Made by a program: the position numbers and the translations under genes
Virus record (IMG/VR): IMGVR_UViG_3300023263_000001
Coordinates: 7,896 to 71,895 of that record
Source of the DNA: a virus
Taxonomy: Duplodnaviria > Caudoviricetes
Direction: 5' to 3' (one strand)
DNA: 64,000 nucleotides
The notes under the pieces: generated by a model
Databases searched by the model: none
What the model saw: the letters and a program-made list of their open reading frames with translations, nothing else
What the model was told of the DNA's origin: nothing
In this document: positions 30,479 through 30,720 of the stretch, one piece after another
Position numbering within the stretch: the first letter of the stretch is position 1
Layout of the letters: each line of letters begins with the position of its first letter

Positions 30479-30547
30479 CGGGCTGAAGCTGGCTAATCGC
30501 CATCGGTATGAAAAAGCCCGACGTCAGGGCCACGATAGTGTCCACCA
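30479..30547 (+). ncRNA. CCA-ended structured RNA A (paralog of RNA C)
   Basis: CGGGCT/AGCCCG stem, linker ACGTCA, GGGC..GATA..GTCC hairpin plus ACCA, then ATTT. Confidence 0.55.
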
Positions 30548-30550
30548 ATT

Positions 30551-30565
30551 TTGTTCTTTGAAAAC
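30551..30565 (+). promoter_or_regulatory. boxA-like antitermination element
   Basis: TTGTTCTTTGAAAAC resembles rRNA-operon boxA; lies immediately before the tRNA. Confidence 0.4.
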
Positions 30566-30637
30566 TGCGGGGAAGTGTGACGGCGCACGCCATCCTCATA
30601 AGTTGGAAGACCGGTTCGACTCCGGCGACCGCAACCA
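30566..30637 (+). tRNA. tRNA with CAT anticodon (Met or Ile2), with stem mismatches
   Basis: GTGT/GCAC D stem, CCATC-CTCATAA-GTTGG anticodon arm, CCGG-TTCGACT-CCGG T arm, encoded ACCA. Confidence 0.75.
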
Positions 30638-30646
30638 ATCCTCAAG

Positions 30647-30720
30647 CGGGTGACTACAGCGAAATGCCTTGGGTCGTCCACCGGTAGAAGCCCGGCGTCA
30701 AGGGCACGATACGTCCACCA
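30647..30720 (+). ncRNA. CCA-ended structured RNA C (paralog of RNA A)
   Basis: CGGGT/GCCCG and CTAC/GTAG stems, linker GCGTCAA, GGGC-ACGATAC-GTCC plus ACCA, then ATTT. Confidence 0.55.

Follow-up and report, generated by a model that had tools for sequence, protein, structure and literature searches.

The window analysed here is the whole stretch of 64,000 nt that covers positions 7896-71895 of a 71,895-bp virus record of IMG/VR, and this record carries direct terminal repeats and is rated complete. The phage comes from soil metagenomes, and among public sequencing runs only soil DNA assemblies and no RNA run were listed for it. Just upstream of the terminase region, about 760 nt (30446-31204) contain no convincing reading frame. 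This interval follows the gene of a small protein of about 90 aa similar to fibronectin type III (FN3) domains (30173-30445), and it is followed by a block of sugar-modifying genes, such as the epimerase-like ORF at 31890-33056, and by large unannotated ORFs. Our analysis placed a run of CCA-ended RNAs in it, in the order of a promoter-like site, RNA A (30479-30547), a boxA-like motif, a tRNA(CAU)-like gene named RNA B (30566-30637), RNA C (30647-30720) and further RNAs. Each RNA of the locus ends in CCA and is then followed by A(A)U(U), and the units in the operons of its relatives end likewise. The region 30449-31300 is a dedicated RNA operon of this phage. Further RNA ends are found at 30975-30983 and 31188-31199, reading CCACCAAUGG and GCCCGCCAAUUU.

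RNA A and RNA C, both on the plus strand, are two paralogous non-coding RNAs whose terminal hairpin carries the full acceptor set of tRNA-Ala, as the earlier note had stated, and both the letters, confirmed at these positions, and the covariance model agree with that description. They share a 3' module of about 37 nt, AAGCCCG(A/G)CGTCA(A)GGGC(C)ACGATA(GT/C)GTCCACCAATTT, and shuffled versions of the window give an expectation of 0.00 for the exact module. The alanine identity set is present in both RNAs in the form of G1-C72, G2-C71, G3.U70, C4-G69, A73 and CCA. Run on the 64-kb window, the covariance model scored 53.4 bits (E 4.6e-12) at 30494-30547 in RNA A and 50.4 bits (E 2.8e-11) at 30672-30720 in RNA C, and the next-best place reached 11 bits (E 0.6), so that RNA A and RNA C are the only copies in the window. 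The free energies of the two RNAs do not separate from those of shuffles (z -0.64 for RNA A and +0.77 for RNA C, with the reverse complements likewise not significant), and the support for them therefore rests on the comparison of homologues described below.

The whole unit of RNA A (30479-30547) is composed of a 5' leader, a variable hairpin H1 (UGGC 30490-30493 with GCCA 30499-30502) and a conserved core. Its 5' end was tentatively placed from the promoter-like site, and its probable 3' end was set at the encoded CCA, which AUUU follows, as at the tRNA-like genes of the locus and of its relatives. The core begins with H2, a T-arm-like hairpin (30503-30521) formed by UCGG (30503-30506), an 11-nt loop and CCGA (30518-30521). 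The pseudoknotted acceptor follows at 30522-30547, in which CGU (30522-30524) pairs with ACG (30532-30534) across the loop L1 (CA, 30525-30526), while H3 is formed by GGGC(C) (30527-30531) with (U)GUCC (30539-30543) around L3 (AUAG, 30535-30538) and is followed by ACCA (30544-30547). The fifth pair of H3 in RNA A is a C.U mismatch. The whole unit of RNA C (30647-30720) starts with an 8-bp H1 stem of GGGUGACU (30648-30655) with GGUCGUCC (30672-30679), and its H2 consists of CCGG (30681-30684), the loop UAGAAGC and CCGG (30692-30695). CGU (30696-30698) pairs with ACG (30706-30708) with an L1 of CAA, and H3 is formed by GGGC (30702-30705) and GUCC (30713-30716) with an L3 of AUAC, followed by ACCA (30717-30720).

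The promoter-like site before RNA A (30449-30477, plus strand) is composed of TTGACA (30449-30454), a 17-nt spacer and AATGTT (30472-30477); its -10 element is weak, and the site was not called by a consensus scan. TTGACA-17-TATTCT and TTGACA-18-TAGGTT are located upstream of the copies of two relatives (L087 and L003, respectively), and TTGACA-17-AATGTT is regarded as the putative promoter of RNA A. Directly after RNA A, the plus strand reads TGTTCTTTGAAAA (30552-30564), which we take to resemble boxA, the antitermination motif of rRNA operons. Motifs like boxA were also found after the element in L026, L114 and L211 and near it in L003 and L258, which suggests that these phage RNA operons may be subject to antitermination of the NusB/NusE type.

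RNA B (30566-30637, plus strand), which separates RNA A from RNA C and reads as a tRNA-like gene with the anticodon CAU, belongs to the same operon and to another family. At its default settings ARAGORN called no tRNA or tmRNA in the window phage; RNA B is called only just below the default threshold, and it is the only call at relaxed thresholds before noise appears. By blastn, RNA B matches annotated phage tRNA-Met genes, among them that of Roseobacter phage DSS3P8 with 84% identity. Its anticodon loop is CUCAUAA, the base of its acceptor stem has two mismatches, the D stem is 3 bp long and the anticodon stem contains a U.U. A diverged relative of this part of the locus is available from contigs of a 2012 soil run (X10), which differ from the window at 25 positions over 30300-30639 at a depth of 6. 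The anticodon stem of RNA B carries C30590G together with G30606C in this relative, and T30593G with T30603C repairs the U.U; these compensatory changes show that RNA B is under selection as a tRNA-like RNA, in a phage that has no second tRNA.

Homologues of RNA A and RNA C were collected by pattern scans of IMG/VR and JGI metagenomes and filtered with the covariance model (R1), which gave 62 matches and 59 distinct members (alignment A3) on viral and metagenome contigs. In most of the search patterns some letters of the 3' module were fixed, U70 was free in three scans only (once as Y) and the letters of both pseudoknot strands were free in a single scan, so the member counts given below overstate constancy. 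The candidates L006, L104, L118, L121, L127, L056, L148, L157 and L165 were rejected as members by the covariance model. For most members no alignment of the flanks to the window is possible, and their G+C differs as well, yet the core is nearly constant. One copy is found in each complete or long record, except that two are present in the window phage and in its 73.9-kb relative L085. In the latter, a complete record, the copies lie at 1032-1085 and 1169-1219, 134 nt apart with no tRNA-like gene between them, and they differ at pair 4:69 (C-G and U-A). We have little doubt that this RNA family is real.

No member was found in 185,579 species genomes (one per prokaryotic species), where three chance matches fell in coding DNA of Rhodobacteraceae. 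When four variants of the core were compared by blastn with 50,697 deposited phages, chance matches alone appeared, mostly in coding genes and including two non-significant ones to tRNA-Ala, and consequently no cultured member is known. Rfam 15 gave no match in the window at gathering thresholds and none over RNA A or RNA C at E values up to 10. The sole permissive match was a C4 antisense RNA with 17 bits against a cut-off of 45, located on the opposite strand at 30594-30649, i.e., over RNA B and the spacer. A description of such a phage RNA was not found in the literature searched.

The unit of the family is about 55-75 nt long and consists of a variable 5' hairpin and a conserved core of 40 nt. 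H1 is variable, abuts H2 in many members, often has a GNRA loop and contains at least 5 pairs in 29 of the 59 members, and it beats shuffles only modestly (mean 4.9 vs 4.0 pairs). H2 is much better defined by covariation, since double-sided changes were found at all four of its pairs among the 59 members, and the outermost pair is C-G in 20, U-A in 19, G-C in 11 and A-U in 3 of them. Its 7-nt loops are closed by G-C and follow U-W-N-R-A-R-Y; all 29 such loops have R at position 4 and A at position 5, and 24 of them have U at position 1. The T-loop of tRNA is characterized by U54, R57 and A58 with the closing pair G53-C61. As far as its letters go, the pattern of the H2 loop is that of a tRNA T-loop.

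The terminal hairpin H3 has G-C at pairs 1 and 2 in 55 and 58 of the 59 members as aligned, and the misses are largely register shifts. Its third pair is G.U in 57 of 59, with C-G once (L208) and a register artefact once, while the adjacent pair 4:69 covaries (C-G 48, G-C 3, U-A 3) and the fifth pair is often unpaired. Conservation of the G.U pair in homologues is what the earlier note had named as a check of its reading, and the wobble pair was indeed kept in these 57 members, while its neighbour flips.

The linker that directly follows H2 turned out to be a part of the fold. Its CGU pairs with ACG, the first three letters of the terminal-hairpin loop, and this pseudoknot had been missed when (A/G)CGTCA was taken as a mere linker. 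The strand order CGU, L1, GGGCC, ACG, L3, GGUCC is that of a classical H-type pseudoknot, in which the second and third strands abut, L1 is 2 nt long in 48 of 59 members and L3 is 4 nt long in 56 of 59. The third pair of the pseudoknot is U-A in 40 members, C-G in 8, U.G in 2 and G-C in 1, and it is unpaired in 7 of the 59, mostly as G.A; the other two pairs are invariant and, because they never vary, uninformative. The covariation of the whole structure was 0.306 as compared with 0.095 in shuffles, none of 500 of which reached 0.306, and it was at most 0.077 when the partners were slid. RNAalifold, run on alignment A3 with no structure supplied, returned exactly the three pseudoknot pairs. 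The soil relative of RNA A changes the pseudoknot pair U-A into C-G (T30524C with A30532G) and an H2 pair from G-C into U-A (G30505T with C30519A).

H2 with four pairs, the pseudoknot with three and H3 with five add up to 12 pairs, which we infer to be coaxially stacked, and 12 is also the length of the acceptor/T branch of tRNA (5 + 7). A pseudoknotted fold that mimics tRNA-Ala is likely, and our confidence in it is considerable. Several other readings of the same letters were discarded. A terminator-like hairpin on the minus strand (30531-30515) is not kept in RNA C or in the homologues, and a hammerhead-like reading of CUGAAG...GAAA...GUC in RNA A, made by eye, does not fit in its helices and has no match in Rfam. 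The interpretation of CGU-N7-ACG as a T-arm with a 7-nt acceptor strand found no support as a plain hairpin, and the pseudoknot explains these letters better.

Two further pairings proposed in the earlier note did not extend to the family. The first, a 5' stem between CGGG(C/T) and GCCCG, has its letters in place and forms no conserved helix, and it overlaps the covarying H2 (UCGG/CCGA in RNA A, CCGG/CCGG in RNA C). In the soil relative X10 this stem is broken, with C30479 deleted and C30519A disrupting G30480-C30519, whereas H2 is kept by the double change. For RNA A alone the minimum-energy fold is this CGGGC/GCCCG stem, at -20.4 kcal/mol vs -15.0 kcal/mol for the family fold; for RNA C, the three-hairpin family fold has -19.1 kcal/mol vs a minimum of -20.5, i.e., within 1.4 kcal/mol. 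Because the stem is broken in the soil relative and the family fold of RNA C is near-optimal, we regard it as a fold that RNA A might at best adopt locally and that the family does not share. The second pairing, between the 5' GGG(C/T) and the 3' GTCC, fails in L096, L089, L155 and L161, where the 57-66 nt behind the tRNA contain no such 5' strand; the unit of L096, at most 61 nt in full, has no 5' partner for the 3' strand of the acceptor.

Where tRNAs are present in the member loci, all of them are on the strand of the element. The CCA of the element lies 62-77 nt past the end of a tRNA-Ala(UGC) in L089, L096, L155, L161 and L187, the next tRNA begins 5-9 nt after this CCA in L155, L161 and L179, and a tRNA(CAU) is located within about 360 nt of the element in seven loci, as in the window. 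This tRNA-like spacing and the common strand indicate that the element occupies a tRNA-sized slot in RNA operons. Pair 4:69 is the same as in the neighbouring phage tRNA-Ala in only 4 of 8 cases, and the element is therefore not a simple duplicate of the adjacent tRNA-Ala. No tRNA was called in 27 of the 47 fetched member loci, several of which are just 1-2 kb long. Besides the element, the phage contig L026 carries 20 tRNA genes, and a tmRNA gene (tag GINKALSNFFGFAEEMPLAA) is located about 1.3 kb further downstream (oriented 4367-4737). In L003 (1750-1860) and L004, a unit of about 110 nt with a 7-bp end stem (GGGCCGG/CCGGCCC) and GCCA precedes a canonical tRNA-Met. No partner protein common to the member loci was found beyond the small FN3 protein, whose gene directly precedes the element in the window, in L003 and in L179 (144-419) and is the only syntenic neighbour found. 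Members of the PolyA_pol (CCA-adding), tRNA_SAD (AlaX-type) and FemAB families were not found in the window phage.

A stack of tRNA length with 12 pairs that ends in the acceptor set of tRNA-Ala would make the element an anticodon-less mimic of tRNA-Ala. G3.U70 is the major alanine determinant, and, apart from those of animal mitochondria, all tRNA-Ala share G1-C72, G2-C71, G3.U70 and A73 (PMC9976931). Since the G.U pair persists through flips of pair 4 and divergence of the flanks, the wobble pair itself is probably read, and its known readers are AlaRS and editing factors tied to AlaRS (PMC9976931). The explanation that we prefer, with odds somewhat in its favour when its parts are taken jointly, is that RNA A and RNA C are free-standing pseudoknotted mimics of tRNA-Ala which the host AlaRS probably recognises. 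RNA A and RNA C would be transcribed with their neighbours from the promoter-like site, with the boxA-like motif following RNA A, and the transcript would be trimmed to the encoded CCA like a tRNA. The host AlaRS would then recognise and probably charge the CCA-ended element, which would act outside normal decoding because it is unable to decode. Its likeliest roles would be those of an alanine-carrying or AlaRS-engaging RNA and of a substitute for tRNA-Ala ends.

The alanine set has exceptions. L208 (9748-9797, 35 bits) has GGCCC/GGGCC and thus C3-G70 instead of G.U, with the same loop, linker and T-like hairpin, and it is a putative natural identity-switch variant; the low-scoring members L021 and L033 are mismatched at H3 pair 1 or 2. 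The 5' end of G1 is not free unless RNase P cleaves there, because the T-arm feeds the 5' strand of the acceptor via a 2-nt loop. In this fold L1 would lie in the deep groove of the acceptor helix, and either this loop or the lack of a free 5' end at G1 could hinder AlaRS, which reads G3.U70 closely; we weigh this point against charging. On the other hand, the tRNA-like structures (TLSs) of viruses are aminoacylated although their acceptor arm is pseudoknotted and conserves only N73-CCA and N1 (PMC9976931). A minihelix-Ala is charged by AlaRS (Francklyn and Schimmel 1989, cited in PMC9976931). Recognition of the element by the host AlaRS is plausible. A more far-reaching proposal, that a widespread family of DNA-phage genes encodes the first natural free-standing mini-tRNA capable of aminoacylation, is possible and in our judgement rather doubtful. 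Under this proposal AlaRS would charge the pseudoknotted minihelix in infected cells, and the charged RNA would serve outside decoding, where it might donate alanine, regulate how much AlaRS or tRNA-Ala is available, or take part in ribosome rescue.

The element could also be a decoy for an anti-phage enzyme that modifies or cuts a tRNA-Ala-like CCA end or acceptor stem, in which case charging would be unneeded. Anti-phage toxSAS and GNAT toxins read the acceptor stem with CCA, FaRel2 modifies a bare synthetic minihelix, and phages counter tRNA-targeting defences with tRNAs of their own (bioRxiv 10.1101/2024.07.05.602228). What remains of a tRNA in the element is the acceptor/T part alone, and the element occurs both in tRNA-rich phages and in the window phage, where no tRNA is called at ARAGORN defaults, which is in line with such a function. 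However, FaRel2 ignores pair 3:70 (bioRxiv 10.1101/2024.07.05.602228), and yet the hallmark of the family is precisely the G.U at 3:70. Moreover, no known defence enzyme is specific for tRNA-Ala ends, and one copy per genome in most phages would make a poor sponge unless highly expressed, and we consider a decoy unlikely here, though plausible as a kind of function.

Alternatively, the element might serve the processing or stability of a polycistronic tRNA/RNA transcript as tRNA-shaped punctuation that recruits RNase P, RNase E or 3' exonucleases for correct excision of its neighbours, or as a 3' guard against exonucleases, and would then not act as an RNA in its own right. RNase P cleaves the tRNA-like structure of TYMV and short CCA hairpins. 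The same enzyme measures the acceptor/T stack (PMC4919913). The element is found in tRNA arrays with tRNA-like spacing, and the RNAs of the window locus all end in CCA followed by A(A)U(U). Nevertheless, processing enzymes need neither G3.U70 and A73 nor the near-constant letters of loop and linker, which have been kept despite unalignable flanks. Canonical tRNA arrays are processed without such an element, and it is also present where no tRNA was called in the fetched locus (the 27 of 47 loci mentioned above), so that a processing function appears quite unlikely.

A decaying remnant of tRNA-Ala, or a DNA-level attachment or packaging site that retains a tRNA-Ala 3' end, is very improbable. 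In its favour, some members agree over their final 15 nt with the T-stem and acceptor 3' strand of the tRNA-Ala of Stenotrophomonas phage YB07, and the window phage has terminal repeats and a terminase region directly downstream of the locus. Against it, the YB07 match (E = 10) lacks significance, and a folded RNA is marked by the compensatory changes, among which are G.U and U.G pairs that can form on one strand only. Moreover, the geometry is kept in 59 distinct members, the window phage encodes only a small serine recombinase or invertase-like protein, and no member was found inside any of the 185,579 species genomes.

The proposed pseudoknotted mimic of tRNA-Ala can be compared with known RNAs. 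It is not a canonical tRNA, because ARAGORN found no cloverleaf at RNA A or RNA C even when strongly relaxed and the Rfam tRNA model gave none at E up to 10. Phages T4 and T5 carry small stable CCA-ended RNAs of unknown function in their tRNA regions. Like these, the element is a non-tRNA gene within phage tRNA clusters that is presumably matured by the tRNA machinery; unlike them, it has no sequence relation by blastn against the 50,697 deposited phages. To our knowledge, the small RNAs of T4 and T5 have not been described as pseudoknotted mimics of tRNA-Ala. The tRNA-like domain of tmRNA, a non-decoding RNA of bacteria and phages, likewise has a T-arm and alanine identity (G3.U70, A73, CCA), whereas the phage element has no mRNA-like part or tag frame and its acceptor stem is not built from the 5' and 3' ends. 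The ARAGORN tmRNA search and the Rfam tmRNA models were negative for the element, and its unit is just 55-75 nt long. It is closer to the synthetic minihelix-Ala and microhelix-Ala, with which it shares the restriction to acceptor and T-arm, G3.U70, A73, CCA and the stack of 12 bp; unlike these constructs, it is natural and conserved, and its topology is rearranged.

The closest structural parallel is the TLS of plant viruses. Pseudoknotted mimicry of the acceptor arm is textbook knowledge for plant RNA viruses, and so are aminoacylatable minihelices as laboratory constructs. In the TLS, such as the TLS-Val of TYMV and the His and Tyr types, as in the phage element, the loop of the 3' hairpin pairs upstream to form an H-type pseudoknot. 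Both carry the stack on a T-arm, a branch of tRNA length and N73-CCA, and both do without an acceptor strand from the 5' end (PMC9976931). The phage element has the 3' H-type pseudoknot acceptor and the T-arm analogue of a TLS, and its coaxial stacking is predicted; the Rfam TLS families, e.g. Tymo_tRNA-like, gave no match to it. In contrast to the TLS, which forms the end of a genome or mRNA, it is a separate small gene of a DNA phage; it measures 55-75 nt, lacks an analogue of the anticodon or D arm and has the alanine identity set. Plant TLSs accept Val, His or Tyr only, with alanine absent (PMC4810235). TLSs are already known as a kind, and what is new here is the CGU/ACG pseudoknot in a conserved stand-alone phage RNA gene, for which the covariance model is supplied so that this recurrent unexplained unit of phage tRNA arrays can be annotated. 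If our reading is true, the pseudoknotted acceptor design arose independently in bacterial viruses, alanine joins Val, His and Tyr among the known TLS specificities, and a natural system of 40 nt becomes available for probing an anticodon-less and possibly charged tRNA end during infection. If the element is charged, it would be the bacterial-virus counterpart of the plant-virus TLS and a living version of Schimmel's minihelix.
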